Source of the DNA: an uncultured bacterium
GTDB taxonomy: Bacteria; Patescibacteriota; Minisyncoccia; UBA6257; GWB1-50-10
Length of the DNA: 62,943 nucleotides
Assembly: GCA_903847915.1 (NCBI GenBank)
Contig: CAINEW010000024.1
Span: 1 to 62,943, forward strand
Direction: 5' to 3'
Part shown: piece after piece, positions 22,228 through 62,943 of the stretch
How the letters are laid out: the number at the start of each line of letters is the position of its first letter
How positions within the stretch are numbered: position 1 is the stretch's first letter
Notes under the pieces: model-generated
What the model was told of the DNA's origin: nothing
The model's database searches: none
What the model saw: only the letters and a program-made list of their open reading frames with translations
Made by a program: the position numbers and the translations under genes

Positions 22228-22291
22228 ATATATATCATACTATGATATATAAAAGAAACCAGCAATATTTATCCACAGAAACAGATACAAA

Positions 22292-23485
22292 TTATTCCAC
22301 AAATCCTCCCCTCACCTTCTCCCATTCCTTTTCTATTTCCTCTGGGCTCAAAAAATTTTCAAGGACTTTTCTAAAAAGATTCTCTTTGAGTTCAACACTC
22401 CATAACTTATCAGGTCCGCCCGGACTTTTTGTGTTCGTCCACTCATCATACGGCGCATAGATTTCTGAAAGCGGGATACTCACAAGCACAATGTCTTCTA
22501 CTTCATCCTCTTCTTCTAATCGCTCTTTTGCGCGTTCAATTTGATGTTTTTTCTGTAATAACTTTTGGGTACTGGTATTCGTCGTAAACTGCACCCCAAG
22601 CGTGTGCGTCTCATCTTTCCCGCTTCCCCCCTCACTCGCCTCAACTCCCACCCCTCTCACTCGCGTCTTTCGTTTTACAATAAAATCCACCTTCTGCTCC
22701 ACGTCTTGAAAAAGATCTGCGGGGATAACTTCAAACGACACCACACCCTGAAGCGAGAGTTTCAAGAAAAAGTTTTCCACCATCTTCTCGGCAATAAGCC
22801 CCGGATGTTCTCGCTCGGACTGTGCATCCTCTAATATGCGCGCATAGGTATCCCGCCTTCCCTTCTCTGTCCGCCTACTCCCTTCCTCGTCATACGCAAT
22901 CTGTCTATCAAGCAACGCACGTAATTTGAGACGCGCCTCCGAAAGCGCGTATTCTTTTTGTGTTATGCGGGGCACCGACGCATCACACGCGTACTCAATT
23001 CCCCACACTCCATCCGTTAAAAGCTCGCTCTCAAGAATAAGTTGTTTGTCTTCCTCACTTCCTAACCAATACTTTCCATTATCAAACGAAATGGGTATGC
23101 CCACTTTTTCTTTATTTATTTCTGGACTATCAATCGCGCGCAACGCTTCATGCAATTCATCCATCACGTGCTGTTTTTCTTTTTGGATATCGTAAATCTT
23201 TTTTTGAGCAGATTCGCGCGTCCCACGCTTTTTTGCCGCCTGTTCAATATGCCACCCAATGACATATTCAAGCTCCCGAACACGCTTTTGTGCAACAGTA
23301 CGCGCTTCATCACTTTCCGCATGAGAAACTGCCTCCCTACGAGCTTTTTCGTCTTCTGCCACATTTCGAAAATCATGAAGATTGCGCTCAAATGTCTCTC
23401 TCATACGCCTCAGTATACCCCACTCTTCCCTTTTTTTACATTCCGTGCTACCCTTATCCGTATTCAGTACCGAGTCAATAATCAA
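22292..23485 (-). CDS. hypothetical protein (charged coiled-coil N-half)
   Basis: 397-aa ORF. No family recognised. The listed start is a TTG at 23485. The first ATG is at 23404. Confidence 0.55.
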   Translation of the reverse strand: MIIDSVLNTDKGSTECKKREEWGILRRMRETFERNLHDFRNVAEDEKARREAVSHAESDEARTVAQKRVRELEYVIGWHIEQAAKKRGTRESAQKKIYDIQKEKQHVMDELHEALRAIDSPEINKEKVGIPISFDNGKYWLGSEEDKQLILESELLTDGVWGIEYACDASVPRITQKEYALSEARLKLRALLDRQIAYDEEGSRRTEKGRRDTYARILEDAQSEREHPGLIAEKMVENFFLKLSLQGVVSFEVIPADLFQDVEQKVDFIVKRKTRVRGVGVEASEGGSGKDETHTLGVQFTTNTSTQKLLQKKHQIERAKERLEEEDEVEDIVLVSIPLSEIYAPYDEWTNTKSPGGPDKLWSVELKENLFRKVLENFLSPEEIEKEWEKVRGGFVE

Positions 23486-47654: not shown

Positions 47655-48767
47655 TTAAAGACGAAGAGGCATCACAATATACAAAAGAGAAGCATCAGAA
47701 GGATGAATCACAGACACGGGACGATCAGAACTCGTCATACCAAGAGTTATTTCTTCACATGTATAAATTTTCAATCCATCAAGAAGATATTTCCAATTAA
47801 ACATAAGTGGTACAATATTTCCTTTTTGTTTTATGGGAACACGGTAGTGATTTTCTCCCACGCTCGCATCACGAGAATAGAGTTCGATGTGTCCTCCATG
47901 TTCACCCATACGAAGCGCAATATCGTTGGCTTTTCCAGAAAGTGAACTTGTTAGTTTTATTGCATTAATAAGTTCTTCGCGATTGATAGTAAGAAATCCT
48001 TTTGTTTCTTTAGGAATAATCGCTTGATAATCAGGAAATCGCCCATCAATAAGTCGAGAAACAAATCGAGTATTAGCAGTCCTTAAAATAATCTGATTAG
48101 TATCAATTTCAAGAATAACCAACTCTTCTTTTTGGTTAAAAATACGAACAATTTCCTCAACAGCACGAAAAGGAATAATAAAAGAGTCGATGTGTCCCTC
48201 ATACACAATTTCTTTTGCACGAAGCGTCTTTTCAGCAAGACGAAAGCTATCAGTTGCAACAAATACTAATCCTTCGTCTTTATAATGCACGTACACACCA
48301 CTAATTTCCGGACGTATCTCTGAATAGTGGGTTGCTGGGAAAACCGCCCCCAACGCGTCTTTAAGCATATATGAAGGCATTGTAATAGACGACCCTTTAT
48401 TTTGAAGAGGAGGAATAGGAGGAAAATCTTTTGCGTCTTGACCCTGAATAGTCGCATCATAATTATCAGTAGTAATAACAATCTGAAAAAGATCATTGCT
48501 TTCGATAGTAATACGTTCACTTGGAATGTTTTTTATAATAGAAGAAAAGAGAGTACACGGAAACGCACATTCGCCCTCTTCAAGAATTTTTCCAGAAAGA
48601 GTATGCTCTACCGCAATTTCTAAATTTGTTGCAGTAATTACAATCTTACCATCACAAGCATTCACAAGAATATTTTTAAGAATAGGAAGGTTACTTGTAA
48701 AACCAGTAGCGCGTTCCACAAGAGTAAGTGCTTCTATTAGATTATTCTTTAATATAATACATTTCAT
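47655..48767 (-). CDS. dnaN: DNA polymerase III beta sliding clamp
   Basis: 370 aa with a three-domain beta-clamp layout, lying immediately downstream of dnaA. Confidence 0.9.
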   Translation of the reverse strand: MKCIILKNNLIEALTLVERATGFTSNLPILKNILVNACDGKIVITATNLEIAVEHTLSGKILEEGECAFPCTLFSSIIKNIPSERITIESNDLFQIVITTDNYDATIQGQDAKDFPPIPPLQNKGSSITMPSYMLKDALGAVFPATHYSEIRPEISGVYVHYKDEGLVFVATDSFRLAEKTLRAKEIVYEGHIDSFIIPFRAVEEIVRIFNQKEELVILEIDTNQIILRTANTRFVSRLIDGRFPDYQAIIPKETKGFLTINREELINAIKLTSSLSGKANDIALRMGEHGGHIELYSRDASVGENHYRVPIKQKGNIVPLMFNWKYLLDGLKIYTCEEITLGMTSSDRPVSVIHPSDASLLYIVMPLRL

Positions 48768-48918
48768 AGTAGGAGTAGTAGAGAGTGTGAAGAATGGGGA
48801 TAAGTGAAAATAAGATTATAGGATATAGATTATTTTGTTTTTCTTTTTATCATATCATGGGGAAAATTATATGCGCTATACCCAGCACCACAATACAATC
48901 TCTATTCTTATCCACTTA

Positions 48919-50304
48919 TTATACTGTTTTATACACACGTTCTTTAATAAGGTTTATTTTTTGGTTTAACGACGGATTTTGGCTGATTTCTTTTGTAATT
49001 TTTTCATAAGCATGGATGGCAGTAGTATGATCTCTCTTCCCCAGTTTTTCCCCAATGTGCGGATAGGAGAGTTTAAGAATGTCGCGCAAAAGATACATTG
49101 CAATTTGTCGCGGCTCTACCACCTCTTGTTTTCTGCTGCGATCGGTAAGGTCAGAGGGAGATACCTCATAAAAATCAGCTACTGTTTTAATCACCTCGTT
49201 CGCGGTAATGTTTTTTGACGCAACTTGTACCACTTCGCCTATGATTTCCTCTATTTTTTTTGCGTCCACTGTTTCTTGTTTGTATTGTTGATAAAAAGCA
49301 ACTTTATTAAGTACGCCCTCAAGTTCTCGTACATTACGTTGTACTTTTGAGGCAATGGTGTGGAGTATTTTTTCATCAATATTCCACCCTTGGTCCTGAT
49401 TTTTTGATTTAAGAATAGCAAGGCGCATTTCGAAATCGGGGTTGCTAATATCAACAATCATTCCTGCTTCAAAACGAGAGCGAAGACGATCTTCTAAAGT
49501 GGGAATAGCTGCGGGAGCGCGATCAGACGAAATAATTATTTGTTTATTCGTCTCATGGAGTGCGTTAAACGTATAGAAGAATTCAAGTTCGGTGCTTGTT
49601 TTTCCTCCAATAAATTGAATATCATCAATAATAAGCACGTCTACGTCACGATATTTCTTTTTCATATCATCAGTGCGTTTGTTGCGAATTGCCCAAACTA
49701 CGTCATTAATAAATTTTTCAGAAGTGATATAAAGTACGTTCGTAGCACCTTTATATTCTTCAATGATTGCGTTACCTGCCGCCTGAAGAAGGTGGGTTTT
49801 GCCTAGTCCTACTCCCCCATACACAAAAAGCGGGTTATATTTTTTCCCTACGTGTTTAATTACTGCTTGGGTAGCAGCATAAGCAAGCTCATTGGAAGAT
49901 CCTACCACAAACGAAGCAAAGGTGTAGCGTGGATTAAGATTGGTTTTTGGGTCAATACGTAATTCAGTAATAGGAAGCTGCGACTTCTCTTCGGTGAGCG
50001 CTCCTTGAGCAGAAGCGCGTGGCACGGTTTTAACAGAAGGAGGTACCGCGGTGCGCGTAGAAACCACATAATCCACATTTTTAATAGACGAATCAATAGT
50101 GCGGAGCGAAGAGAGAATAAGTTTATGATAGCGTGTTTTAACCCATTCTTTAGCAAAATTATTAGGTAAACTCACAAGCGCCACCCCCTCTTTTGTGTTT
50201 TGCTCAACCAATTCACTATGTTTGAGCCATGTAAGAAAATTTGGACGCGAAATCTGCAATTCTATTTCACCAAGTACTGTTTGCCATATATTTTTTGGTT
50301 CCAT
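48919..50304 (-). CDS. dnaA: chromosomal replication initiator DnaA
   Basis: 461 aa with GGVGLGKTHLL, sensor motifs and the C-terminal DnaA-box-binding HTH (RDHTTAIHAYEKI). Confidence 0.95.
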   Translation of the reverse strand: MEPKNIWQTVLGEIELQISRPNFLTWLKHSELVEQNTKEGVALVSLPNNFAKEWVKTRYHKLILSSLRTIDSSIKNVDYVVSTRTAVPPSVKTVPRASAQGALTEEKSQLPITELRIDPKTNLNPRYTFASFVVGSSNELAYAATQAVIKHVGKKYNPLFVYGGVGLGKTHLLQAAGNAIIEEYKGATNVLYITSEKFINDVVWAIRNKRTDDMKKKYRDVDVLIIDDIQFIGGKTSTELEFFYTFNALHETNKQIIISSDRAPAAIPTLEDRLRSRFEAGMIVDISNPDFEMRLAILKSKNQDQGWNIDEKILHTIASKVQRNVRELEGVLNKVAFYQQYKQETVDAKKIEEIIGEVVQVASKNITANEVIKTVADFYEVSPSDLTDRSRKQEVVEPRQIAMYLLRDILKLSYPHIGEKLGKRDHTTAIHAYEKITKEISQNPSLNQKINLIKERVYKTV

Positions 50305-50480
50305 AGATGAAAAGAAATTCTCTTATTCCCTCAATAATATGCTCATTATAGAAAGTTTCAATAGCATTTTTAAGAGAGAAGATAAGAGGAGTGGATTTCC
50401 TGTGGATAAGTATACCCCCTAAACAAATAAAAACAAAAGGAGTTGCAAAAAGAGTGTGGTGTGCTATGATAAAAACTCAT
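50305..50480. promoter_or_regulatory. dnaA/rpmH divergent control region, candidate oriC segment
   Basis: A perfect DnaA box TGTGGATAA (reverse complement of TTATCCACA) lies at 50401..50409, in AT-rich flanks. Two 8/9 boxes also lie in the dnaA-dnaN spacer, at 48795..48803 and 48908..48916. Confidence 0.5.
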
Positions 50481-50615
50481 ATGAAAAGAACGTGGCAACC
50501 AAAAAAGAAGAAAAGAGCGCGCACTCATGGGTTTTTAAAAAGAACCAAGAGCCCAGGAGGGCGAAAAACCCTCACAAGGAGACGGCAGAAAGGAAGAAAA
50601 AAACTTGCGGTGTAG
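50481..50615 (+). CDS. rpmH: 50S ribosomal protein L34
   Basis: [44 protein letters not shown], 44 aa. The start is set at the internal ATG at 50481. Confidence 0.93.
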
Positions 50616-50629
50616 TTGTTGTTGATATT

Positions 50630-50881
50630 ATGGCGCTTCTTGTGCGAAAAGCGGTAGGAAGCGGAAACCACATTATTTCTATTTCAAAAAATGTGATAAA
50701 AAAGGCGGTGGTACGCAACACCGTGCGGAGAAGAATACGTGCAATCCTCCGCGCTCTTCCACTTTCTAATTCTCATCTCCGTCTTATGATAATTGTACGA
50801 TCAGACGTGAGTAATGAATCATTTAAAAGTCTTACTGAAGAGGTGTATGCTTCGGTGAGGCGACTATTCCCCTCTTTATAA
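50630..50881 (+). CDS. rnpA: ribonuclease P protein component (short form)
   Basis: ISISKNVIKKAVVRNTVRRRIRAIL matches the RNR-motif region of RnpA, and the gene follows rpmH as usual. With the ATG at 50630 it is only 83 aa. Confidence 0.7.
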   Translation: MALLVRKAVGSGNHIISISKNVIKKAVVRNTVRRRIRAILRALPLSNSHLRLMIIVRSDVSNESFKSLTEEVYASVRRLFPSL

Positions 50882-50887
50882 TCTACT

Positions 50888-51577
50888 ATGTTCTCATTTT
50901 TTCACACTATTCTCTACGAGCCAATCCTTTCATCGCTTGTATTTATTTATAATAATCTCTCATTTAATGACTTGGGCCTTGCAATTACCATACTTACAAT
51001 TGCAATTCGTGTAGTACTCTTCCCCTTTTTCTATAAAAGCGCAAAAGATCAAGCACTTATGCAACGCATTCAGCCACGCATAAAGGAGATTCAAGTAAAC
51101 AACAAAACCAACAAAGAACAACAAGCGAAAGAATTAATGGCGCTTTATAAAGAACACAAACTCAACCCCTTTTCAGGGCTCTTATTATTAGTAATTCAAT
51201 TACCAGTATTTATCGTGCTTTTTCAAGTCTTTTCAAAAGGGCTTTCAGTGGATTTATTTGACAATCACACGCTTTTCGGCTTAATTAATCTTGGGAATCC
51301 TCATATAGTAATTGCGCTTATTGCTGCAGGATTGCAATGGATTCAAGGGAAATTAACGCTCGCGGTGGCACCTAAACAAGAAACGGGTGATAAGGGCTCA
51401 TTCGCCTCATCGCTCGCCTCTACAGGCAAAATGATGGTGATTGCAGGCCCTCTCTTAACCCTTTTAGTGCTTGCGCGTCTCCCTGCGGCGCTTGGTCTCT
51501 ACTGGACAATCTCTAATCTTTTCTCGGTAATACAACAAATACATATCAATAAAAAAATTCACCAATCTCCTTTCTAA
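50888..51577 (+). CDS. yidC: membrane protein insertase YidC (short Oxa1-like form)
   Basis: 229 aa with 5 TM helices. The motifs ...LTIAIRVVLFP...Q..MQ..QP....IQ......Q.E.M.LYKEHK.NP..G are present. Confidence 0.88.
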   Translation: MFSFFHTILYEPILSSLVFIYNNLSFNDLGLAITILTIAIRVVLFPFFYKSAKDQALMQRIQPRIKEIQVNNKTNKEQQAKELMALYKEHKLNPFSGLLLLVIQLPVFIVLFQVFSKGLSVDLFDNHTLFGLINLGNPHIVIALIAAGLQWIQGKLTLAVAPKQETGDKGSFASSLASTGKMMVIAGPLLTLLVLARLPAALGLYWTISNLFSVIQQIHINKKIHQSPF

Positions 51578-51583
51578 ATAACC

Positions 51584-52021
51584 ATGAACGAACTCCGTAC
51601 ACAACTCCATACACTTCTCACATTGATGGGATTTGAAGATCCAGGCGTAGAAGTAAACGAAGAATATCGTAAAGTGTCGTTAATACTTGACGATAATTAT
51701 GTGCGCGAAAATATTTTAATTGTCCTTTCCGCATTTGAACATTTAGTAAATTTAATGGTGCGCAAACAACAAGAGGAATATGCAGCTCCTTACGTGGTGG
51801 ATGTGAATTTCTATCGCAAAGAACGTGAACGGCTTATTTCCGAACTTGCCCGCGCCGCAGCAAAAAAAGCATTGATGACAAAACAAGAAGTAGAGCTCCC
51901 CGCGATGAATGCGTATGAGCGTCGATTGGTGCATATGGAAATCACGACTCACCCCGAACTTAAAACAGAAAGCATGGGCACCGGCAAAGAACGAAGAGTA
52001 ATTATTAAGCGATTAGAATAA
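51584..52021 (+). CDS. jag: Jag/KhpB-like R3H RNA-binding protein
   Basis: 145 aa with a KH-like region and R3H (NAYERRLVH). It sits in the conserved position after yidC. Confidence 0.8.
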   Translation: MNELRTQLHTLLTLMGFEDPGVEVNEEYRKVSLILDDNYVRENILIVLSAFEHLVNLMVRKQQEEYAAPYVVDVNFYRKERERLISELARAAAKKALMTKQEVELPAMNAYERRLVHMEITTHPELKTESMGTGKERRVIIKRLE

Positions 52022-52068: not shown

Positions 52069-52215
52069 CTAGTTTCTATTCTTATCTATATTTATGCATT
52101 ATCATAGGATCGTACGATAATATATAAAAATACTTATATCTCACGATCGTAAGATATAAGTAAAAATAACAACATCTCCCGAGGCGTATTAATTATGTAG
52201 TTAAAAAGTACAAAG

Positions 52216-52312: not shown

Positions 52313-53461
52313 CTACTGAGCGAGGCGGTAGAGTTGTTTATCGTACCGATTGATAAAATAGAGGCCATTCACCCCCTCTTCTAGGCGGGTGCCATCAATA
52401 GCGCCGGTAAGAATAATAGGTTCAAAGTCGCCAGAGGGGAAATCAATGCGATAGAGTGTGTCGTGTGTAAAAAACGCATGGCGGAAGTAGTCGTCAGGAA
52501 GTATTCGGGTGAGGGATTCAAATTCAGACGCTTGGGGCACAAAGCAATAGAGCTCTCCCTCCCCTCCCTCAAATTGCCCTTCGCTACATTTGTCCGGGAA
52601 GGTGGTAAAAGGGAAAGGCATAGCAAGCGCAAGCGTGGCGCCCTCAAGGATGCGGAATTGACGAGGAAGTGAAAATTGGAATGCGATTTGATTATGAGAA
52701 CCCCATGAAAGATAGCTCCCCTCTTCTCCTTCGCGGAAAAGCGTAAGGGCAAGCGTTGTAAAATTCAATTTCCATGTACGTGCGCCATAGGTTGCAGACG
52801 GCCGTTCGGAAATAAGTAATTCTTGATCAGAAAATATCTTGAGTGTTACGTCATGTAAATTAAAATTTTTGATAAGCATCTTATAAACAGGAGGGGTTTT
52901 AGAAATGTCCGCGCGCACCAAATCCGTTTGAGATGAGTTTTTTTGTGTAGTCGCGATTAATTCTTCATCTTTCGTGCCCCATGTCGCCATAAGAATATCC
53001 CTCGGGAGCGGGCGCCACACCTTATCAATTACATCAAAAATCCCCCACTGTGGTGCACGCGGGTCACCGAACGAAGCCAAGATCTTTTCGGTGCTCGGAG
53101 ATAGTTGAATGGCGTTTAAGGCGTCAATTGTTTGTGCAGAAACTTCAAGATCCGGTCCCTCGCGCGCCGCATACACCTTTCCCTCGGGGGTCAGATAATA
53201 CACTTCGCTGGTATTCTGATTAATCCAATAATCAAACACTTGATGTTCCGAAAGTTTTTTAGATTGCGGCATTTCAGGAGATAGAGGCGACGAAGAAGTG
53301 GGGGCTTTAAGAGGGGTGCTCGCAGGAAATCCACTGCTTGTGGAAGACGAAAAGGAATTAGGAGGGTTTTCAGGTACGGCAGAACTCCAGATTAAATAAA
53401 CAATAAAACCAAGTATAAGAATCACGCCGACCACAATAAGTTTTTTATAAAGAGGTTTCAT
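52313..53461 (-). CDS. hypothetical membrane-anchored extracytoplasmic protein (last gene of T4SS-like cluster)
   Basis: 382 aa with an N-terminal TM helix, then an S/P-rich linker. No family recognised. Confidence 0.5.
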   Translation of the reverse strand: MKPLYKKLIVVGVILILGFIVYLIWSSAVPENPPNSFSSSTSSGFPASTPLKAPTSSSPLSPEMPQSKKLSEHQVFDYWINQNTSEVYYLTPEGKVYAAREGPDLEVSAQTIDALNAIQLSPSTEKILASFGDPRAPQWGIFDVIDKVWRPLPRDILMATWGTKDEELIATTQKNSSQTDLVRADISKTPPVYKMLIKNFNLHDVTLKIFSDQELLISERPSATYGARTWKLNFTTLALTLFREGEEGSYLSWGSHNQIAFQFSLPRQFRILEGATLALAMPFPFTTFPDKCSEGQFEGGEGELYCFVPQASEFESLTRILPDDYFRHAFFTHDTLYRIDFPSGDFEPIILTGAIDGTRLEEGVNGLYFINRYDKQLYRLAQ

Positions 53462-53464
53462 AAA

Positions 53465-55081
53465 TTATTTAAATTTCACATGAAGATGGCGCTGGTCCTC
53501 GTTAAAATATAAACAATCATTACTACGATATCCGGAATCTTCTGGTGCAGTACATCGTGTTGCACTAGGGAAAATTCGTGCAATTTCTTTAGCAGTATAT
53601 TTTGATCCATTAGTATCATCAAGGCGCAAATCAACAGCCGGTTTGTCTGGTCCATGAGTTGTGTGACCGCTTTCAGTTCCTCCTGTAATTACAATTGTGC
53701 ACAAACGACCACATCCTCTTTTTAGTGTTATTAAATTATCGATAACAAAAGAAGGAAGAAAAGCTAAACTTGTGCAATCTCTTTGTCCTGGAGAAGTGCA
53801 ATTAGCTTTATTTATAGTAATTCCTACAGCGTTTAATTGGGCTCGTTTTGCTAAATCGTCAGCTTTTCCTTCGGGACTACTTTGTTCTTTCCCCCCACTA
53901 CCACCAGATGGTTGTTGAGGTTGCTGTCCAGGAGGTGTTGGAGTAACTTGAGCAATCGGATTCACCTTTGTTGTTTTATTACACTTCCATCCGACTAGAT
54001 CCCTATCAACAATACGGTCACGAGGAATAGTTCCGAGTTCGGTAGTCAGAATAGAATCATTTGGGTTCGGATGGTTAAAAGAGGTGCTTACTGTGGTTGT
54101 GCCTATAATCCACTCATGAGGCCCAAACTCAAGTTCCTCTGTTGCCCACAATGCCCATTCTGCGCAAAAAGGTTCTTTCGTCACTAACGTTGCTTTAATT
54201 TCTTGTTTTTGTGGAGCGCAAAGCTTCAAATTACTATTTAAATCTATCATTTGTACATTACCATCGTTTTTATTATCACTTTTTGTTGGGTATCTAATAT
54301 CCTGATAGGCATAAATAAGACATTTTGCATCAGCAGGCTTATCCTTAAAATAAGGATACATCCACACCCTCGATTTTGCAGGAATGCCCTCGCTCTCATC
54401 GTAATATTTCTCGTCATTATCGATAGAAACGCCTTCTTTTGAATTATTTCGACGATATTCGCACGTAACAGGGTCTATGTTTGTGGTTGCAAGATTGCCT
54501 GTCCCATCAAATAGTTTAATGTCTTTAAATGGCTCGCATTCATTGCTAGATTTTTCTTCCGCACAAATTTCTTGTGTAATTACTGTGCCGTCGCTACTTG
54601 TAGTATTCACTTCGATTGGTTTAAAGCCGTCCTGACAAGTTGCACTAATCAGTGACTGATTGGCATTTTTTGTAAGATCCGGGAGCTTCACTAAATCAGG
54701 ATTGATCGTTTTGAGGATAAAATAGGATCCAAAAAGAAGCGCGATGCCATAGAGTGATGCCATCACGTCCCCCTTCCCACTCGTCAAGTCATCAATACTT
54801 CCCTGACTTGTCGCAATCTTAAATCCTCCGTACACCAAAAATCCGAGTGCCACAATACCCGAAAATCCCATCATAAAATAATAAATCTGGACAATAAACG
54901 CACGGAGATCGGTTTTTGCAGCCCCTTTATTTTCATTGCAAAGTTTACCTAATCCCCCACTCGGATCTCCGGGGCAAGGGAACTGCACATCCACAATATC
55001 CCCATAGGCACTTACGATTGCAGGCGCAAGTATCATACAAAGTGCAAAGGCAAGAAAGACATAACGGAAAGGTTTAGACAT
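53465..55081 (-). CDS. T4SS pilin-like (TrbC/VirB2-type) N-terminal module fused to LAS/M15-type metallopeptidase-like C-terminal domain
   Basis: 538 aa. A signal peptide is followed by two TM helices with the FIVQIYYFMMGFSGIVALGFLVYGGFKIATSQG....GK pattern seen in CPR T4SS pilins. The C-terminus has ITGGTESGHTTHGPDKPAVDL and HLHV (H..D ... HxH zinc-ligand pattern). Confidence 0.5.
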   Translation of the reverse strand: MSKPFRYVFLAFALCMILAPAIVSAYGDIVDVQFPCPGDPSGGLGKLCNENKGAAKTDLRAFIVQIYYFMMGFSGIVALGFLVYGGFKIATSQGSIDDLTSGKGDVMASLYGIALLFGSYFILKTINPDLVKLPDLTKNANQSLISATCQDGFKPIEVNTTSSDGTVITQEICAEEKSSNECEPFKDIKLFDGTGNLATTNIDPVTCEYRRNNSKEGVSIDNDEKYYDESEGIPAKSRVWMYPYFKDKPADAKCLIYAYQDIRYPTKSDNKNDGNVQMIDLNSNLKLCAPQKQEIKATLVTKEPFCAEWALWATEELEFGPHEWIIGTTTVSTSFNHPNPNDSILTTELGTIPRDRIVDRDLVGWKCNKTTKVNPIAQVTPTPPGQQPQQPSGGSGGKEQSSPEGKADDLAKRAQLNAVGITINKANCTSPGQRDCTSLAFLPSFVIDNLITLKRGCGRLCTIVITGGTESGHTTHGPDKPAVDLRLDDTNGSKYTAKEIARIFPSATRCTAPEDSGYRSNDCLYFNEDQRHLHVKFK

Positions 55082-55083
55082 AA

Positions 55084-55755
55084 TTATTGTGCAGTGAATT
55101 TGATACTCTCTTTAGTAAACTCAAGGGGATTTTTTTTGTTTTGCACGATGGTGGAGGCCTGCACCGTGCGTGTCTCTCCGGGGTTCGGCGCAGAAATATG
55201 GAGGGAGAGCGTATTCGTTTTTTGATCGTAATATTTAGTATCATTCACTTGCCACGAAAACACTAAATCACTCAACGAAGAGATGTTAAAAAAATAAGGA
55301 ATCGCATTCAGCGAAAGATTTTGCTCGCCGTAAACAGCAGTATTCGCGACCGGTGTTTCAATTACCGTCAAAAAATTACCAATCGGAATACGCACACCTC
55401 CCTGTGTCTGCGCTCCATTCCAAGGGAACGTCACACGCACATAATGCGAATCCCCAGGAGATTTTTTAATAGTGACAGTTTTATTCACAAGCCCTAACCC
55501 TTCGCCTAAAAAAGTGTCATCCATATACCAGCGCAAAGGAATGGCACTCAAATCAACCACTTTGTTGTTCTGTGTTGCCATAAGACCGACGCGCACGGGC
55601 GTATGAGGAGTCGCAAGCGCTTTCCCTTGATAATCAGAAGGAAAAAAATTGAGCGCTTCCCATGTAAAAATCAATTGAGGTGTTTTTGGCGTTTCTGCGT
55701 GCGCAAATCCACCGTATAAGAAAAAAGCGAGTAACAACAAAGACAATGCTTTCAT
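55084..55755 (-). CDS. hypothetical secreted protein
   Basis: 223 aa with signal peptide MKALSLLLLAFFLYGGFAHA. No family recognised. Confidence 0.5.
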   Translation of the reverse strand: MKALSLLLLAFFLYGGFAHAETPKTPQLIFTWEALNFFPSDYQGKALATPHTPVRVGLMATQNNKVVDLSAIPLRWYMDDTFLGEGLGLVNKTVTIKKSPGDSHYVRVTFPWNGAQTQGGVRIPIGNFLTVIETPVANTAVYGEQNLSLNAIPYFFNISSLSDLVFSWQVNDTKYYDQKTNTLSLHISAPNPGETRTVQASTIVQNKKNPLEFTKESIKFTAQ

Positions 55756-55804
55756 TTCTCTTTAGTATACCTTATTTTGCTCGCAAAGGTGAGTGGAAAA
55801 ACTA

Positions 55805-56188
55805 TTATTTAGAAATGATATTTTTTCCAGTAATACCATACTGAAGAGAGCTAGACATCTTGTTCAGCTTGGGATGATTATGGATGTAGGTTTGAATCAC
55901 AAAAGAAGTAAAAAGGGTAGGAAGTAAGGGAAGAAGATTAAGGGCATATTTAGTAATTTGGTGACTCGTTTTAAGTGCAGCCGAATCCCTTTTCATATAT
56001 CCCCAAAAAGTCATTGCGCCTGTGCCTGCTGCCTGAATCACGGGGGCAATCGCAAGACCGACACCTGTAACGTCAATAAGGGCACATACACCATCAATCG
56101 TTAAAAAAAATAATCCGCCGATAATAAGCTCCGCCTCAAGATATTTATTGTGAGGTTTTTTATTTTCAACCTTAACTTCTTCTGCCAT
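55805..56188 (-). CDS. hypothetical small membrane protein
   Basis: 127 aa and multi-TM, directly downstream of the VirB4-like gene. Confidence 0.5.
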   Translation of the reverse strand: MAEEVKVENKKPHNKYLEAELIIGGLFFLTIDGVCALIDVTGVGLAIAPVIQAAGTGAMTFWGYMKRDSAALKTSHQITKYALNLLPLLPTLFTSFVIQTYIHNHPKLNKMSSSLQYGITGKNIISK

Positions 56189-56191
56189 AGA

Positions 56192-57979
56192 TTATTCTTT
56201 TTTTTCACTTTCTCCTGACTCTTTCATTTTTTGCAATCCTTTCATTTCAAGCATCTGCTCTGGATTGGTCGTAATAATCTGATCTTCGGTATAAGACGCA
56301 ATCACCTTAATCGCCACATGTTTAAGACCTGCAAAAAAGAGTCCCTCCCCCACCCCCGCTTCAAGAAGGAATGATTGTTCACCTTCGGTCAACGCAAACG
56401 CGTGTGCGATCGCCTCAATAGAGCTCGGTGACTGTTTCATAAGTAATTGGAGTGCAGAGTTCGTCACAATAGGGCGCCCATATTCCGAGCGCAAAAAATC
56501 CTCTACATCTTGAGTGATGGTCGTAATCCCCAAATAATATTTGCGCGCCCGTTTTACCAGTCCGAACAAAAAGGACGCAGAATCCTTATATTTCATCATA
56601 AGCCACGCCTCATCAATCACAAGTAACCGTTGGCGCAATTCTGAACGGATAAGATTCCACACAAAGTTTAATACGATATACATCGCAATCGGGCGTAATT
56701 CTTCTTCAAGATCGCGGATAGAAAACACAATAAGGCGATTTTTAATATCCACGTTCGTCGGCGCATTCGTAAATCCTCCGTAGGATCCATGCGTATATTT
56801 ATCCAACCGCTGTGCAATCCCCTGCCCCCCTTCTGTGTTGCGTAAAATCACTTGCAGATCTTCAAGGAGTGGCGGGTTTAATTCTTTCGTGGCAGAAAAA
56901 TTCTCTGCGGTAATATCGCGCGAGGCATAGGTTTCTACAATCACGCGGTCAAGTAACGAATCCTCTTCGGGGGTAATAGTACCCAACATCAATTTCAAAA
57001 GACCAGTAAGGTTTAAGGTGTGTGATTTAAACACGTCCGCGGGCTCTTCTCCTTCAGGAATAATCGGAATGTCAAATGGATTGATGTGGTTTTGTGAGGT
57101 AAGTGAGATTTTAAAATAACTGCCCCCAATCGCATTCGCGAGATTTTGATATTCATTTTCGGGGTCAATGACAATCACGTGCGTGCCCATCATAAGCGTG
57201 CGGAGAATTTGGAGTTTGGTGGCAAATGATTTTCCTGCACCCGATTTTGCAAAAACCACCGCATTCGCATTTTCAAGCGAAAAACGATCAAAAATAATCA
57301 AACTATTATTGTGCATATTGATGCCGTACAAGATGCCTTTGTCCGAGCTCAAATCGGGCGAGACAAAAGGAAAAAGTGAAGAGGCGGGACCAGAATTAAG
57401 GGTCGTGTGGAGCTCAAGCTCATCTTTTAAAATAGGTAACGTAGAATTATATCCCTCTAATTGGCGAAACAATGCGGGTTTAATATACACAAGCTTTGAT
57501 TCAAGGAGCGAAGTGAGCGCATTTTCAATTTTTGCGAGCGCTTCTTTGGTAGGAGCATACACGGTAATATACACGCCTATTTTAAACAATTTTTCACGCG
57601 CTTGGAGCAAGAGATCACGAAGATTTTCCACGTCTTGATAAGCGGTCTCAAGCATCGGGTCGCGCACAAACCCCTTTTCTTCTTTTTCGTTCATTTCCAC
57701 TTCAATTTGTGCCACCTTTTTACGAAGATTTTTAAGAGCGAGTGCGGTGTCCATCGGATGCACAAAAAGGGAGATATCCATCATCTCTGCCATATTAATA
57801 ATTGGAGAAAACCACCCGCTCATAAGAAAACGCGGGTAGGTAAACACAAAAAATGTTTTTACTTGAAAATCGCCAAGGGTGAGTGATCCCGAATCAATAC
57901 GGAGACCCGAAGGCGCGATGATATTTTGAATATCATCTTTTTTAGAAGGATTATAAGCAGAAGGAAGAGTAAATTTCAT
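56192..57979 (-). CDS. VirB4/TrbE/TraC-like conjugation-type ATPase (C-terminal ATPase part)
   Basis: 595 aa with Walker A FAKSGAGKSF and Walker B LLVIDEAW, in an AAA_10/DUF87-like layout. Confidence 0.85.
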   Translation of the reverse strand: MKFTLPSAYNPSKKDDIQNIIAPSGLRIDSGSLTLGDFQVKTFFVFTYPRFLMSGWFSPIINMAEMMDISLFVHPMDTALALKNLRKKVAQIEVEMNEKEEKGFVRDPMLETAYQDVENLRDLLLQAREKLFKIGVYITVYAPTKEALAKIENALTSLLESKLVYIKPALFRQLEGYNSTLPILKDELELHTTLNSGPASSLFPFVSPDLSSDKGILYGINMHNNSLIIFDRFSLENANAVVFAKSGAGKSFATKLQILRTLMMGTHVIVIDPENEYQNLANAIGGSYFKISLTSQNHINPFDIPIIPEGEEPADVFKSHTLNLTGLLKLMLGTITPEEDSLLDRVIVETYASRDITAENFSATKELNPPLLEDLQVILRNTEGGQGIAQRLDKYTHGSYGGFTNAPTNVDIKNRLIVFSIRDLEEELRPIAMYIVLNFVWNLIRSELRQRLLVIDEAWLMMKYKDSASFLFGLVKRARKYYLGITTITQDVEDFLRSEYGRPIVTNSALQLLMKQSPSSIEAIAHAFALTEGEQSFLLEAGVGEGLFFAGLKHVAIKVIASYTEDQIITTNPEQMLEMKGLQKMKESGESEKKE

Positions 57980-58635
57980 GAATTAGGAGTATGGGTAATG
58001 CGTAGATCTTTGGTTTCCATAAAACGGGGATTGTAGAGATTGAAAAAAAGTTCGGTAAGTTCTTCATTGTTCAAGGCGGCGACGCGTAGACCAATTTGTT
58101 CAAGTCCTTCCGTCACTTGGGATACGCGCCGATCTAGTTGCTCCAAGTGTTCTTCGGCGCGCGCAGACACTTCCGCAGGTTTTGATTTAGACGAATTGAA
58201 TATGTTGAGAATGTTGGAAAGCCCTCCCCCGTCTCCCGTCACGACAATGGGGTCATAAGGAACAATAACAAAAAATGATTTACTAATAATTGCGTTTTCT
58301 TCTACAAACGAGCGAATAAAATTAATATATTCTTCAATTTGAATTTTTAACAACTCATTTTTTTCTTCGTCTTTCCGCACCTTCATCTTTTCAAGATATT
58401 CTTCAATATTAATTTTGCGTGAATGAATAAAAAATTGCACAGGGAAGTCAAGAGTATTCAAAAATGTTTGAAACGTATTCAAAATAAGATTTTGTTCTTC
58501 CTCTGATTTGAGATCAAAGTTCACCCCACTCACGATAAGAATTTTGCGCAACTCACCCTTCTTAAGATAAACAATACCACTCTTAATTTCTTTGACCGCG
58601 ACAAATTGTTGGGTGGGTAAGGTTGGTTCAGGCAT
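57976..58635 (-). CDS. hypothetical protein, possibly the detached N-terminal domain of VirB4
   Basis: 219 aa with a 4-nt overlap with the ATPase gene. V.EIKSGIVYLKKGELRKILIVSGVNFDLKSEEEQ resembles the start of Gram-positive VirB4 homologues. Confidence 0.4.
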   Translation of the reverse strand: MPEPTLPTQQFVAVKEIKSGIVYLKKGELRKILIVSGVNFDLKSEEEQNLILNTFQTFLNTLDFPVQFFIHSRKINIEEYLEKMKVRKDEEKNELLKIQIEEYINFIRSFVEENAIISKSFFVIVPYDPIVVTGDGGGLSNILNIFNSSKSKPAEVSARAEEHLEQLDRRVSQVTEGLEQIGLRVAALNNEELTELFFNLYNPRFMETKDLRITHTPNS

Positions 58636-58652
58636 AGGATATAAATAGTATA

Positions 58653-59141
58653 TTAGTAATCAATTCGTTTTGCTACTGTTCGATCTCCTGAAAGAGAGCG
58701 TACCACTTGATACCGCTCACCTTGTGGTTCAGTGTGGGGCTTAAATAATTTTCCGGTGGTAATTTGAAGTGCGAGCGATTTTAATTTGTCTTGTACACTC
58801 ATACTATTACGTAGCGAAGTAATTGCATCAATATCAGGCACATCAAACGCGGTTGTGGGAGCTGGTCTTTGCCAGGTATAGGCGTGAGGAGTTAAAAGAT
58901 GTTTGAGCGCCGCACGTGCGATAAGTGGCATTGACTGACCATTAATACGGGCGAATGCAAGAGTCACCCCGAGCCCTCCCACAATACCTGTGAGTGGAAG
59001 CCAGATAAAAAAAGAAAGTGTTTTGAAAGCGATAAAACTGATAAGTGCAGGAATCGCTACATAAAAAAATTGCGCAAGCGTAAGAAACCCAATAATTTTT
59101 GGTTTTTCTTCTATAAATTGAGGGACTTGGAATGATGCCAT
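58653..59141 (-). CDS. PrgI-family (VirB3-like) membrane protein
   Basis: 162 aa. The N-terminus QVPQFIEEKPKIIGFLTLAQFFY followed by two TM helices matches the PrgI pattern. Confidence 0.6.
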   Translation of the reverse strand: MASFQVPQFIEEKPKIIGFLTLAQFFYVAIPALISFIAFKTLSFFIWLPLTGIVGGLGVTLAFARINGQSMPLIARAALKHLLTPHAYTWQRPAPTTAFDVPDIDAITSLRNSMSVQDKLKSLALQITTGKLFKPHTEPQGERYQVVRSLSGDRTVAKRIDY

Positions 59142-59143
59142 AG

Positions 59144-60058
59144 TTACAAAATCCGCGGTGCGTCATTTTCTTCCATCGTGGAAAGATTGTGATGTAACGG
59201 ATCAAGTTCGTGAATCCGAGGATTATTTATTTTAGGAAGAGGGGTAGATTTAACCTCCTCTCGGTAGGTTTTATCTTGTTCGTGCACGAGCGAATTTTTA
59301 GGGAGAGAGGCAAGAGGAGGAAGAAAATTATCAAAGTGAATACTATCCCCTTCCGAAGAAAGAGGAGAAGTTTGGAGGCCGGTATAATGCACCACTTTTT
59401 GTGGTTCCTCTTTTTCTTTTACGGGCGCGCTCGTTTCTATTGTTGCGCGTACATCTTTTTCTTGTGTAATTTTTGATTTCAAAAAACGAAATGGTAAAGA
59501 GAAGAAAAATGGCGTATGTTTTTTCTCTTCAGGCGCAACTATCTCTCTTTTTTGGAGAAGAAATGGCGCCGGCTCCTCTTTTTGGGATGTGGTGGCAAGA
59601 GACGTATCGGTGCGAATAGGAATAGAAGATCCTTCTGTGTTATCAAGTGAGGAAAGTGAAATAACTGGTGTAATACCGTCTACTGATCGCGGGGAAACGG
59701 AAAGGGGCGGACGCGCGCGCGGTGCTTCAATCGGCGCATATACTTTTTTAATATCACTTTCAAACGATTTTAAGACATATTCATAAATCTCGTTTTTAAG
59801 TGCGAGCGCCACACGATCGGTTAAATAAAGTGTGCGCATAATCTCTTCAGGAAGCGAGGAAAGAGAGAGAAATCCCATAAGCACAAGACCTACTAATTGT
59901 TGGAGTGTTTCTTTTTTCTCTTCGTCTAAATAGTGCGATTCCGCAATTTCATTGAGGGTATGAAACATATGTTCCGACTGAATCGCCTCTTGCAAGGACG
60001 CAGGAAGAATATCAATCCGTTCCTCCAATTGTGCTTCGGTAATAAGTGAATAGTTCAT
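59144..60058 (-). CDS. hypothetical protein
   Basis: 304-aa ORF within the cluster. No family recognised. Confidence 0.45.
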   Translation of the reverse strand: MNYSLITEAQLEERIDILPASLQEAIQSEHMFHTLNEIAESHYLDEEKKETLQQLVGLVLMGFLSLSSLPEEIMRTLYLTDRVALALKNEIYEYVLKSFESDIKKVYAPIEAPRARPPLSVSPRSVDGITPVISLSSLDNTEGSSIPIRTDTSLATTSQKEEPAPFLLQKREIVAPEEKKHTPFFFSLPFRFLKSKITQEKDVRATIETSAPVKEKEEPQKVVHYTGLQTSPLSSEGDSIHFDNFLPPLASLPKNSLVHEQDKTYREEVKSTPLPKINNPRIHELDPLHHNLSTMEENDAPRIL

Positions 60059-60071
60059 AATTTATTAAACA

Positions 60072-62033
60072 TTAATCTCCGCCCCCTCGCGTAATATTAG
60101 GATTTTCTTCGTCGGCAATTCCCGCTTGTTGCGCTTGTTCTATGGTAAGAGTGGGTCGAGTTTGTGCTTGTGGTAACGGATCAACTGCAGCTCCTCGATT
60201 GTTTTGCTGAAGTCGCCTATTTCTCTGTTTTTCTCGTTCTTCAATTTCCTTTCTCACCTTTTCACGTGCTCCATTTATTATTGTGAGCTCGTCTAGTTTT
60301 TCTTCTCTTTCTTCATCGGTTGTAGCACGAGCAAGAGCTCTAGTGGCTTCATCAGATTCATGTATAAGTTCTCTCTCTTTCTCTGTAATTTGATCATCGG
60401 TATAGCTTTTTATTGATCCATTAAGTTTCATGCTTATTTCATCTTCTTCTATACCTCTTAATTCTCTCTGGTGTCCCATAAGTTTCTTTGTGAGTTCCTG
60501 CTCTTGGTCTTTATACAATTCCTTGTGTTGTTTAATTTGGTCTGCGGTCATGCCTTGTCTTTCGTTTCTTATTTTATCCAGTTTTTCTTGTGTTTCCTTT
60601 TTATCTTTCTTAATTTCTCCTTTTGATTTCTTTTCGTCCCCCTTCTTTTCTTTTGACTTGCCCCAATAGCCCGTACCCTCTCCTACTCCCTTAAAGAGAG
60701 ATCCCACAAATGACTGTGGTTTAACTACCTGACTTTTAGCAGTATTCACAACCCCCTTCCCTGCACCTTTAACGCTTTTTCCAATACTACGAACAGGAGC
60801 AGTAACAATCTTACCCAAAAACCCTTTGTTTTTACCAATGTTTTGCATCTTAGTACCGAGTGTGTTTAGTTTTTTAGCAGTATTTTGACCAAAGGTACTC
60901 CCCGCAAGCCCTTTCGCAGTAGATTGACCCGCACGTTGTGCTTTATTTTTTGCCCAACTCTTCGCTCCATTTTTAATTCCATTTCCAGCGCCTTTTAATC
61001 CTTTCATAGTTGCTTCAGCTCCCTTAATACCCATCTTTTGAGCCGCTGTCATTCCACCAATAAGGAGCGCGGTAAGCATAATCATCTGAATCCCTTGTTG
61101 AACAACTGCTTGCATCGGTCCTATAAAAAAGTTGCCTGTAGGAGTAATTTTTGCGAGCGCTTTTGCGGTGGCAAGGGTAAGATAGATGAAAAAAGAAACC
61201 GCAGGGAGGAAAAATGTCCAGTTAAGGAATTCATTCCACCACTCCTCAAAATAATGTTTAAACTCAGGGAGTGCGCGAGCAAAAAAAGCAAGCGGACTTA
61301 AAGTGAGAAGAAAGGTTAAATGAAGATAACGCATTAAGAGCATAAACGCGAGCGCGAACATCACAACAGCAGCAATCAAAAGAAAAATAATCTGAAAAAC
61401 CGCAGTCATAACAGATGTAATCATTTGTGCTCCAATACCAGCAATAAGACCTCCTTGGTCTGCAGGATCGGGGGGAGGAGGATTAACATCGCCAAGAAGG
61501 AGTTTTTGGGGGCCAAACGCTTCGGTGAGTGCAGTAGGGAGAGCGTCGCGTACATCTTCATTAAGAAATACATTCGTAAGTGAGTGTGAAAAATTAATAA
61601 TCACTCCTGCAATTGCTAAACTAAAATTAACTAATACAGCAGCAATAATAAGATCGGTTAAAATACTTCCCTTCTTCGCGTCGTAGCGGTCATAACGGAC
61701 AATAGTGGCAAATGCAACAACAAGCATCGCGAGGACAAAAAGGATATTAATAAAATCGCGAAGAATTTTCCATCCAATAGTGATAATCTGATTACCTTGG
61801 CTTAATACATTAAAATTAAGATCAAGCATCCATCCCACAAAAACACTTCCTAATGTATAAAGCCCTCCTGCAATTCCTTGAAAAATCAAGGCAATTGCCC
61901 GAATAAAAAAGTCAAAAATACCACCCAAGCTGATCACATCAAAAATGCCTGCGGAGGCAAAATGAGGCACCGCGAAAATAAACAGTGCAAGCACGCCTCC
62001 TCCCCACAATAAATAATGAGATTTGATACGCAT
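60072..62033 (-). CDS. TrbL/VirB6-like polytopic membrane protein with long K/E-rich C-terminal tail
   Basis: 653 aa with about 8 TM helices over the first 340 aa, then a Gly/Lys-rich and coiled-coil-like charged tail. Confidence 0.55.
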   Translation of the reverse strand: MRIKSHYLLWGGGVLALFIFAVPHFASAGIFDVISLGGIFDFFIRAIALIFQGIAGGLYTLGSVFVGWMLDLNFNVLSQGNQIITIGWKILRDFINILFVLAMLVVAFATIVRYDRYDAKKGSILTDLIIAAVLVNFSLAIAGVIINFSHSLTNVFLNEDVRDALPTALTEAFGPQKLLLGDVNPPPPDPADQGGLIAGIGAQMITSVMTAVFQIIFLLIAAVVMFALAFMLLMRYLHLTFLLTLSPLAFFARALPEFKHYFEEWWNEFLNWTFFLPAVSFFIYLTLATAKALAKITPTGNFFIGPMQAVVQQGIQMIMLTALLIGGMTAAQKMGIKGAEATMKGLKGAGNGIKNGAKSWAKNKAQRAGQSTAKGLAGSTFGQNTAKKLNTLGTKMQNIGKNKGFLGKIVTAPVRSIGKSVKGAGKGVVNTAKSQVVKPQSFVGSLFKGVGEGTGYWGKSKEKKGDEKKSKGEIKKDKKETQEKLDKIRNERQGMTADQIKQHKELYKDQEQELTKKLMGHQRELRGIEEDEISMKLNGSIKSYTDDQITEKERELIHESDEATRALARATTDEEREEKLDELTIINGAREKVRKEIEEREKQRNRRLQQNNRGAAVDPLPQAQTRPTLTIEQAQQAGIADEENPNITRGGGD

Positions 62034-62036
62034 AAA

Positions 62037-62943
62037 TTATGGAGCGATAGGACAATATTGATTAAGCTTTGATTTAGTGTCAGAGAGCTTTAAAGCAATA
62101 GCGTTTTCAAGAGTAGTAGCACGTCCTGCGGAAGAAATCGCAGTTGAAAGCAGGGTGGCAATCCGCGCAGTGCGATTACTACTCGGTTGAAGGGCTTGAA
62201 TGGTTGTTAGCTCGGCGGTAGAAGTAGTAATAAGCGTTAATTCTTCGACAATCTTCGGTTTCCAGGTATTTTTTGCGGTTGCGAGATCAGTCACCGCAGC
62301 TCCCTTAAGTCCTGCAATACCCGGGTTAGAGCCATTAGGATCAATACTGGTATAACAAGCAACAAGTCCTTTCGGCGTCTGAATCACTCCATCATTTTCA
62401 AGAAGTGGAACTAATTGATTATTTTCGGTTTGCGCCTTGGTGTTTGTGGTGCGCGAAGCACTAAGTGATGTGCTCGCATTTAAGATTTGGAGATCAGAGG
62501 TGTTTTGTGTGTGAGCACCATACCCGCGATCATTAGAAATTCTTGCTGCTTCCCCTAACGTTCCTCCATCATTTCCTGTTCTATTACTAAAATCTTTATC
62601 TTCCGGTTTTAATTCATCTTTAATATTCTTAATACCATTTTTAACCATTTTATTAAAAAGCGCATCGCCGATCGCCGAAAGATATTCAGTCAAATCTTCA
62701 GAGGTGAGCACATAATCAAGATCATGTGTAGAGACCTTTGCAGTCGCGGCAGCAATCGTATTCCCCGGTGTGTTGATAAGATAACGTCCGCACGACCAAG
62801 GACCGATGGAGGCGTTAGGATCAATGCTTAAAATACGATTAGCATCATCAGAAGGAGGAGTTTTTTCGTATGAGGGAATCCATGGTAATTCAGAAAACCA
62901 ATCTTCGCCTGAATCGTATGTGCCGCTCCCAATTACCACATCC
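62037..62943 (-). CDS. hypothetical protein, 5'-partial (frame open to window edge)
   Basis: At least 300 aa, S/T/N-rich and probably extracytoplasmic. The listed start is a GTG 4 nt from the window end and the frame stays open. Confidence 0.5.
   Translation of the reverse strand, partial: DVVIGSGTYDSGEDWFSELPWIPSYEKTPPSDDANRILSIDPNASIGPWSCGRYLINTPGNTIAAATAKVSTHDLDYVLTSEDLTEYLSAIGDALFNKMVKNGIKNIKDELKPEDKDFSNRTGNDGGTLGEAARISNDRGYGAHTQNTSDLQILNASTSLSASRTTNTKAQTENNQLVPLLENDGVIQTPKGLVACYTSIDPNGSNPGIAGLKGAAVTDLATAKNTWKPKIVEELTLITTSTAELTTIQALQPSSNRTARIATLLSTAISSAGRATTLENAIALKLSDTKSKLNQYCPIAP

Follow-up and report, generated by a model that had tools for sequence, protein, structure and literature searches.

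A survey of 3,035 Patescibacteria genomes recovered the VirB4 ATPases of their type IV secretion systems (T4SSs) as a monophyletic clade nested in MPF_FATA (Quinonero-Coronel et al., 2025, Microb Genom, PMC12102498). It reports TrsD, PrgI/VirB3, VirB6 and VirB2-like pilins near virB4, nearly no relaxases (only 109 in the 3,035 genomes), and homologues of the VirD4-type coupling protein (T4CP) in 2,918 genomes, mostly distant from virB4. In the class Paceibacteria virB4 lies near dnaA, dnaN, rnpA, rpmH and ksgA, and the authors propose a non-conjugative role, possibly import (PMC12102498). Contig CAINEW010000024.1 of assembly GCA_903847915.1, from an uncultured Patescibacteriota bacterium, was analysed here over 62,943 nucleotides, which appear to be its whole length and are referred to below as the window. 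At its right-hand end it carries a ten-gene cluster that is almost certainly a chromosomal T4SS of the Patescibacteria type. The system was probably inherited vertically and derived from monoderm conjugation machinery of the MPF_FATA group, its link to a relaxase and coupling protein having been lost.

Functional work on such systems has centred on another lineage of the phylum. [quoted passage not shown] A review from 2025 regards these systems as the first monoderm T4SSs that likely make a pilus (PMC12857230), and a 2026 preprint on a cultivated relative in the phylum describes uptake of host RNA together with tubular structures that may be T4SS pili (bioRxiv 10.64898/2026.06.21.733656). The system itself, its want of a relaxase, its proximity to the origin and the speculation about its function have thus already been published, in papers dating from 2023 to 2025. 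What the present locus contributes are modest increments: the identity of TrsD, a LAS-like module on the pilin protein, a beta-propeller in gene 10 and an operon oriented head-on to replication.

In its components (VirB4, TrsD, PrgI/VirB3, VirB6 and a VirB2-like pilin), in having no relaxase or T4CP near virB4 and in its neighbourhood of dnaA, dnaN, rnpA, rpmH and ksgA, the window locus matches the Patescibacteria clade, with no difference at the level of the system (PMC12102498). A non-exhaustive comparison with sections of that paper did not meet with three details of the window: the LAS/hedgehog-like module borne by its pilin protein, its conserved beta-propeller with a membrane anchor, and an operon running head-on toward the origin. 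The Southlakia system (SEML1_0006-0019, PMC10633639) is likewise of the monoderm type and contains pilins; neither a relaxase nor a coupling protein could be recognised among its genes, and its low locus-tag numbers suggest a site near the chromosome start, as in the window locus. It belongs to a different class, Saccharimonadia, and differs by an array of six separate VirB2-like pilins and by peptidase and lysozyme genes downstream of virB4, whereas the window locus has one pilin-domain gene, fused to a hydrolase-like module.

The conjugative MPF_FATA systems (prgH-I-J-K-L of pCF10, trsC-D-E of pGO1 and CD1110 of CTn2) share with the window locus the order VirB6, VirB3/PrgI, (TrsD) VirB4, cell-wall hydrolase (the last only putative in the window), as well as the absence of an outer-membrane core, and in pGO1 TrsD is also separately encoded. 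Unlike these systems, the window locus is without relaxase, T4CP and PrgB-type adhesin, no VirB8-like protein was identified in it, its site is chromosomal and its inheritance vertical; it also possesses a VirB2-like pilin, which they lack (PMC12102498; PMC12857230).

Ten co-directional open reading frames (ORFs) with operon-like spacing occupy the minus strand between positions 62943 and 52313 (Table 1). An earlier note on this DNA, made from the letters alone, had described a ten-gene minus-strand cluster with gaps of 50 nt or less, and its positions and sizes agree with the present ORF list, in which the largest gap is 49 nt and two genes overlap by 4 nt. The hairpin 3' of gene 10 is likely the 3' end of the operon. 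Gene 1 is cut by the contig end at 62943, and the 5' side of the cluster was consequently judged from the loci of relatives; an exact-protein look-up of the VirB6-like protein returned contigs of other samples of only about 4 kb.

Table 1. Positions of the T4SS cluster and adjoining features in the window; genes are numbered in cluster order, and the gap is that to the following gene (a negative value is an overlap).
Feature	Coordinates	Strand	Size (aa)	Gap (nt)	Basis
Gene 1, 5'-truncated S/T/N-rich protein	62037..62943	-	at least 301 (partial)	3	ORF list; family-less
Gene 2, extended VirB6/TrbL-like polytopic membrane protein	60072..62033	-	653	13	Orthologue Pfam matches, transmembrane segments
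Gene 3, soluble protein, no transmembrane segment	59144..60058	-	304	2	Conservation profile; family-less
Gene 4, PrgI/VirB3-like protein with two transmembrane segments	58653..59141	-	162	17	Pfam PrgI
Gene 5, TrsD-like protein, separately encoded VirB4 N-terminal domain	57976..58635	-	219	-4	NCBIfam matches
Gene 6, VirB4 ATPase (central and C-terminal part)	56192..57979	-	595	3	NCBIfam/Pfam/PDB matches, Walker motifs
Gene 7, small hydrophobic membrane protein	55805..56188	-	127	49	Orthologue alignment; family-less
Gene 8, secreted protein with signal peptide	55084..55755	-	223	2	ORF list; family-less
Gene 9, three-part protein	53465..55081	-	538	3	PF18895 match, domain map, AlphaFold2 model
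Gene 10, anchored beta-propeller protein	52313..53461	-	382		AlphaFold2 model, Foldseek
Terminator-like hairpin, 14-bp stem then T-run, 3' of gene 10	52131..52162	-			Pattern scan, consensus match only
Origin-region core genes dnaN (47655-48767), dnaA (48919-50304), rpmH, rnpA, yidC and jag (50391-52021)	47655..52021	.			Translations; DnaN Pfam domains

Gene 6 is the VirB4 ATPase of the cluster. It matches the NCBIfam model NF045971 (conju_CD1110) at 3.4e-110 and 369.5 bits, over the 325-bit cutoff, followed by the Mbov_0397 ICE-type model at 9.4e-86, so that its best curated models are MPF_FATA prototypes, those of CD1110 and of the Mycoplasma integrative conjugative element (ICE) type. Pfam P-loop_TraG (2.8e-27) and AAA_10 (1.2e-10) are matched as well, the best PDB relative is the Thermoanaerobacter VirB4 4ag5 (3.6e-45; TrwK, 3e-4), and both Walker A (AKSGAGKS, residue 244) and Walker B (LLVIDE, residue 452) are intact. 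Directly upstream, gene 5, the stop of which overlaps the VirB4 start, had been listed in the earlier note as a 219-aa unknown without a family. This description does not hold, given that the protein matches TrsD, that is, the VirB4 N-terminal domain: VirB4_plasma at 1.8e-11 (model positions 104-233), TrsD/TraD NF041427 at 1e-9 and conju_CD1110 at 5e-7 (model positions 2-105). TrsD lies upstream of virB4, and the split is kept, in 77 of the 80 related loci; by these matches genes 5 and 6 are read as a naturally split VirB4.

Gene 4 matches PrgI at 1.9e-4, under the Pfam gathering score; all 60 of its orthologues match PrgI (best 3.2e-12), 11 of them TcpE too, and its transmembrane (TM) segments span residues 16-34 and 44-62. 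Gene 2 on its own gave no significant family match in profile searches, only a precomputed TrbL_3 match and one to CD3337/EF1877 at 0.036, both weak. TrbL (PF04610) is found in 9 of 49 orthologues (best 4e-7), and transitive homology of this kind supports its assignment as a putative VirB6/TrbL protein. About seven TM-like segments lie within residues 8-293, and the tail of 308 aa (residues ~346-653), rich in K and E (14% and 10%), is of coiled-coil character, with weak PDB matches to coiled-coil proteins; "extended VirB6" proteins of such a type are covered in a recent review (PMC12857230). One related locus encodes the membrane part of VirB6 and a long hydrophilic protein in distinct ORFs (L003:4663-6171 and L003:6229-7599), an arrangement which suggests that the K/E-rich tail may be able to exist as an independent protein. 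In another locus the T4SS operon is interrupted by a gene for a "23S rRNA-intervening sequence protein" (L007:8403-8792, plus strand; PF05635, 8.1e-28, with a weaker bAvd-like match), which separates the orthologue of gene 3 from that of PrgI. No outer-membrane core components were detected in the cluster proteins by profile searches. The earlier note had named a VirB4-like ATPase, a PrgI/VirB3-like protein, a TrbL/VirB6-like protein with a 300-aa K/E-rich tail and, overall, a Gram-positive-style minimal T4SS core. All four are upheld by the matches above, the last by the CD1110 (CTn2) and Mycoplasma ICE models together with PrgI and TrsD.

The second line of evidence concerns where the cluster resides and how it has been inherited. 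It adjoins dnaA, dnaN, rpmH, rnpA, yidC and jag, which, with the DnaA boxes and GC skew, agrees with the earlier placement near the replication origin among core genes. A perfect DnaA box at 50401-50409 and near-consensus ones at 48795-48937 are grouped around dnaA, a local clustering that is only suggestive, the window-wide count being not significant (23 versus 16.2); GC skew shifts near 48 kb. The operon is transcribed toward this putative origin, which is head-on to replication. Its orientation relative to dnaA is the same in most related loci, the origin block being inverted in L028 and L031. A promoter scan was uninformative, with 28 sites versus 27.0 in shuffled sequence.

Relatives of the VirB4, at 54-80% identity, occur in at least 572 species-representative genomes of Patescibacteria. 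The best 80, at 53-80% identity, are all from Patescibacteria metagenome-assembled genomes of Paceibacteria type, in line with the candidate phyla radiation origin that had been presumed for this DNA, and the nearest include Jorgensenbacteria, Wolfebacteria, Brennerbacteria and Azambacteria. Dozens of Paceibacteria genomes share the full gene order and, next to it, jag-yidC-rnpA and dnaA-dnaN. This origin-side position is constant across genomes with DnaA only 42-73% identical, the dnaA-virB4 distance is 2.3-9.8 kb in 42 of the 56 loci having enough flank, and VirB4 identity follows DnaA identity closely (r=0.965, n=44). The composition is native, with a GC content of 0.418 in the cluster versus 0.410 elsewhere and a tetranucleotide correlation of 0.969 between the cluster and the remaining window.

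Mobility genes are likewise missing. No VirD4, relaxase or integrase was found among the 30 further window ORFs scanned, which covered those of about 180 aa and above and are core genes or family-less. A relaxase or T4CP (VirD4/TcpA) was found neither in the 63-kb window nor in ~10 kb upstream in relatives; no search aimed at oriT was made. The upstream side in relatives instead shows gene 1 at full length and a further small anchored protein. The cluster ends there at rsmA/ksgA, beyond which come a protein with LysM or LysM-M23 and an ATPase of the ComM/YifB type. The earlier note had likewise seen no VirD4, relaxase or integrase, and had considered that sequence beyond 62943 might reveal a standard ICE; the genes found there in relatives, and the conservation of both the whole gene order and the origin neighbours, speak for the opposite. 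Conserved synteny, co-divergence of VirB4 with DnaA, native composition and the lack of mobility genes therefore rule out an ordinary ICE, and they mark the cluster as what appears to be a vertically inherited core trait of the lineage. As a separate observation, several relatives carry, immediately upstream of rsmA and the T4SS genes, a Mg-chelatase-like ATPase of ComM/YifB type (L013:33-1502, Mg_chelatase 7.4e-93; L027:27-1505, recognised solely from the similarity of its N-terminal sequence) together with a wall hydrolase that has LysM or LysM-M23.

Gene 9 is the sole pilin-domain ORF of the window. Its product begins with a signal peptide and a T4SS_pilin hairpin resembling VirB2 (~residues 45-137), continues in a variable region rich in Cys and ends in a C-terminal domain of ~140 aa (~400-538). 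Residues 61-123 match T4SS_pilin PF18895 at 1.4e-3, below the gathering score; PF18895 is precomputed in many homologues, and a hidden Markov model of the pilin family scores 8.2e-27, its seed alignment having included the window sequence. Of the 80 loci, 61 have a pilin-domain ORF downstream of virB4, usually as one copy. In the domain map the C-terminal domain recurs beside the pilin domain in most homologues, and in the 23-member alignment TGGTE, H, D and HxH are invariant, the latter being H476-x7-D484 and H532-x-H534 in gene 9. This invariant H, D, H-x-H set is what we take to be the LAS zinc-hydrolase pattern. An AlphaFold2 (AF2) model of the domain (pLDDT 82.4, pTM 0.78) gave no Foldseek match against the PDB passing E=1e-3, the best by probability and TM-score being the N-domains of Sonic and Indian hedgehog (7rpk_H, Shh N-domain, probability 0.87, TMq 0.50; 3k7j). 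Hedgehog N-domains are the "S" of LAS. Among viral models, large phage proteins annotated as glycoside hydrolase 19/peptidoglycan-binding were matched at E 7.8e-4 and probability 0.99.

Sequence comparison gave less. The C-terminal domain has no Pfam or PDB sequence match; hhalign against an SHH-N sequence aligned only the E...HxH segment at a probability of 7%; no SLT or CHAP domain was found in the window, and SLT PF01464 is also carried by two gene 9 homologues. Fold search and motif together make a LAS/hedgehog-type zinc-dependent wall hydrolase moderately likely. Of the pilin-like/peptidase fusion named in the earlier note, the pilin part is therefore sustained by PF18895, and the peptidase part moderately so, by the H/D/HxH motif and the fold matches. 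The LAS-like module is present in just 8 of the 80 related loci, as against 61 with the pilin domain, and the pilin hairpin therefore seems to bear different extracellular modules in different lineages. In the related loci L003, L005, L006, L010, L019, L020, L028 and L031 the order is gene 8, gene 10, gene 9, compared with 8, 9, 10 in the window.

The cluster further encodes lineage-specific envelope proteins, namely the large surface protein of gene 1, the small membrane protein of gene 7, the secreted product of gene 8 and the anchored beta-propeller of gene 10. In gene 10 a TM helix at the N terminus (residues 3-27) is followed by an S/P-rich linker, disordered and reaching to ~65, and then by an extracellular domain predicted as a seven-bladed beta-propeller (AF2 pLDDT 91.6, pTM 0.81), for which Foldseek returned prolyl-oligopeptidase propellers, WD40 proteins and TolB at probability 1.00. 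Its homologue clusters, at least 100, are exclusively from Patescibacteria, and zero of them have a Pfam domain. Gene 10 had been considered as the missing VirB8, a candidacy ruled out by the propeller model.

The window part of gene 1 comprises the C-terminal 301 aa; full-length orthologues of 496-659 aa occur in 20 related loci, and the whole protein is accordingly predicted to be a signal-peptide or anchored surface protein of 500-660 aa. Gene 3 has a conserved N-terminal domain of ~115 aa and a P/S/E-rich, poorly conserved C-terminal half, and its family counts 514 cluster representatives at E<=1e-3 in a library of 1.84 billion proteins, mostly over residues 1-115. In the alignment of gene 7 orthologues E20, P87, P90, F96 and N104 are invariant; a match to TraL (0.037) is at chance level, and a second VirB3 or a VirB2 hairpin was rejected for this protein, since its hhalign comparisons with PrgI and with the pilin domain each stayed under 1% probability. 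Gene 8, conserved over its full length and with orthologues in 45 of the 80 loci, looks beta-rich to judge by its sequence. Neither Pfam/NCBIfam searches of genes 1, 3, 7 and 8, nor a Pfam scan of 74 pooled orthologues (genes 0, 1, 3 and 8), nor PDB profile searches of genes 2, 3 and 8 returned anything consistent. The earlier estimate that half of the components are family-less is right for genes 1, 3, 7 and 8 and wrong for gene 5, which is TrsD.

Taken as a machine, the split VirB4 (TrsD and the ATPase part), PrgI/VirB3 and the extended VirB6 supply a cytoplasmic-membrane translocon, in which VirB4 and TrsD, docked to VirB6 by PrgI, would build an envelope-spanning channel. VirB4 may power a VirB2-based surface structure at the site of contact with the host cell. 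The probable gene 9 hydrolase could open peptidoglycan, either acting on its own cell in the manner of a VirB1-type helper or acting on the host wall, and the extracellular proteins (the propeller, gene 8 and gene 1) might scaffold the machine or bind the host. The whole would serve the epibiotic lifestyle and not conjugation, which is highly improbable as the actual use.

Import of host macromolecules such as nucleic acids is tentatively favoured, because the essential function elsewhere needs no T4CP and these cells must acquire nucleotides. A sharper form of this explanation, a dedicated uptake machine for host DNA or RNA comparable to ComB or Ced, is possible to the same limited degree. 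The ComB system of H. pylori and the archaeal Ced system are related to T4SSs and work without a relaxase, ComB also without a T4CP, and both have been cited as precedents for an import role (PMC12102498; PMC11665869). They differ from the window locus in that ComB is a diderm VirB2-4/6-10 system and Ced consists of CedA/CedB with type IV pili. A locus with neither relaxase nor T4CP fits uptake, as do the published observations that Patescibacteria are without nucleotide synthesis and that comEC is dispensable and the T4SS essential in Southlakia (PMC12102498; PMC12857230; PMC11665869), the preprint's host-RNA uptake alongside tubular structures that may be T4SS pili (bioRxiv 10.64898/2026.06.21.733656), and the ComM-like gene that relatives have upstream of the cluster. 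Against this, what has been published is correlative, the sequence gives no sign of direction and no nuclease or nucleic-acid-binding domain was found in the cluster. The VirB4 does match the CedB model (7.7e-11), but weakly, its 41 bits lying far under the 700-bit cutoff in a comparison of homology made for VirB4 alone.

Export of effectors into or onto the host bacterium, perhaps via a coupling protein encoded elsewhere, is rather unlikely. VirD4 homologues are common elsewhere in Patescibacteria genomes (PMC12102498), Wang et al. suggest that the system "may instead export proteins" (PMC10633639) and effector delivery has been speculated upon (PMC11665869); yet the distant T4CP of Southlakia is not essential (PMC12102498), and neither the cluster nor its surroundings yielded a recognisable candidate gene for an effector or a chaperone.

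A third reading, in which a VirB2-based pilus or anchor is purely adhesive and no substrate is moved, is improbable. VirB4 without a T4CP suffices for pilus biogenesis across T4SSs, which counts in its favour, together with the frequency of the pilin-domain gene downstream of virB4 and the several extracellular proteins of the cluster. Against it, adhesion is already given by type IV pili in Saccharibacteria (PMC12857230), and the large cytoplasmic tail of VirB6 and the retention of a full inner-membrane translocon suggest an active channel. Lastly, an ICE transfer module or degraded ICE, with relaxase, T4CP and integrase past the contig end, would account for top VirB4 models from ICE and conjugative-transposon families and could hide where the contig stops inside gene 1 with its upstream side out of view, but it is very improbable and was dismissed in view of the fully flanked relatives with no mobility gene upstream, the fixed site by the origin in spite of DnaA divergence, the VirB4/DnaA co-divergence with native composition, and the rarity of relaxases across the phylum (PMC12102498).

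The view of the earlier note, of a machine for DNA uptake, attachment or effector delivery and not for conjugation, is thus retained for a system that is relaxase-less, fixed at the origin and co-diverging with DnaA. An extreme version, in which a conjugation channel was turned by Paceibacteria into a feeding tube, appears quite unlikely: a pilin-borne LAS hydrolase would cut the host wall, the propeller, gene 8 and the surface protein would dock, and RNA or DNA would be imported through VirB6/VirB3/VirB4 without a coupling protein.

Several points weigh against reading the locus as a translocating machine of the epibiotic lifestyle that has lost its conjugative partners. A distant T4CP is likely, because VirD4 homologues are so widespread in the phylum and mostly lie far from virB4, and a relaxase elsewhere is possible, as the window includes neither the cluster's 5' end nor the remainder of the genome. 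No VirB8-like component was found, the VirB8, PrgL and TcpC profiles being unmatched in all cluster proteins; structure models covered gene 10 and the C-terminal domain of gene 9. The LAS assignment of gene 9 relies on the motif and on TM-scores of ~0.45-0.5, without sequence-profile support, and a pilin domain fused to ~400 extracellular residues may be incompatible with polymerisation into a pilus.

Outside the cluster, three features of the window were recorded. An isoleucyl-tRNA-synthetase-like protein of 1154 aa (12861-16325, minus strand) carries an inserted histidine-phosphatase domain (His_Phos_1, residues 499-666, 3.4e-33) that splits the match to its class I catalytic domain into two stretches. 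The region 20135-23485, the lowest-GC part of the window (0.354 at 20-22 kb), holds an N6/N4 DNA methylase (21127-22227, 2.3e-40) between family-less ORFs of 331 and 397 aa, and may be a restriction-modification island. A lone PilB-type T2SSE ATPase (38558-40237, plus strand; 2.3e-115) is followed by RuvB, TsaE, a 5'-3' exonuclease, a histidine kinase and RuvC, with no pilus genes.

A large part of bacterial diversity belongs to the Patescibacteria, which are unable to synthesise nucleotides, amino acids or lipids, and the way in which they draw such compounds from host cells is a central open question. The T4SS is among the few conserved envelope machines that they keep, and its Saccharibacteria counterpart is essential for epibiotic growth; the T4SS is therefore a prime candidate for a host-exploitation device. 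The window locus adds no new concept and offers a clean Paceibacteria example, the probable hydrolase-pilin fusion, conserved propeller and four conserved family-less partners of which could guide structural and genetic work.

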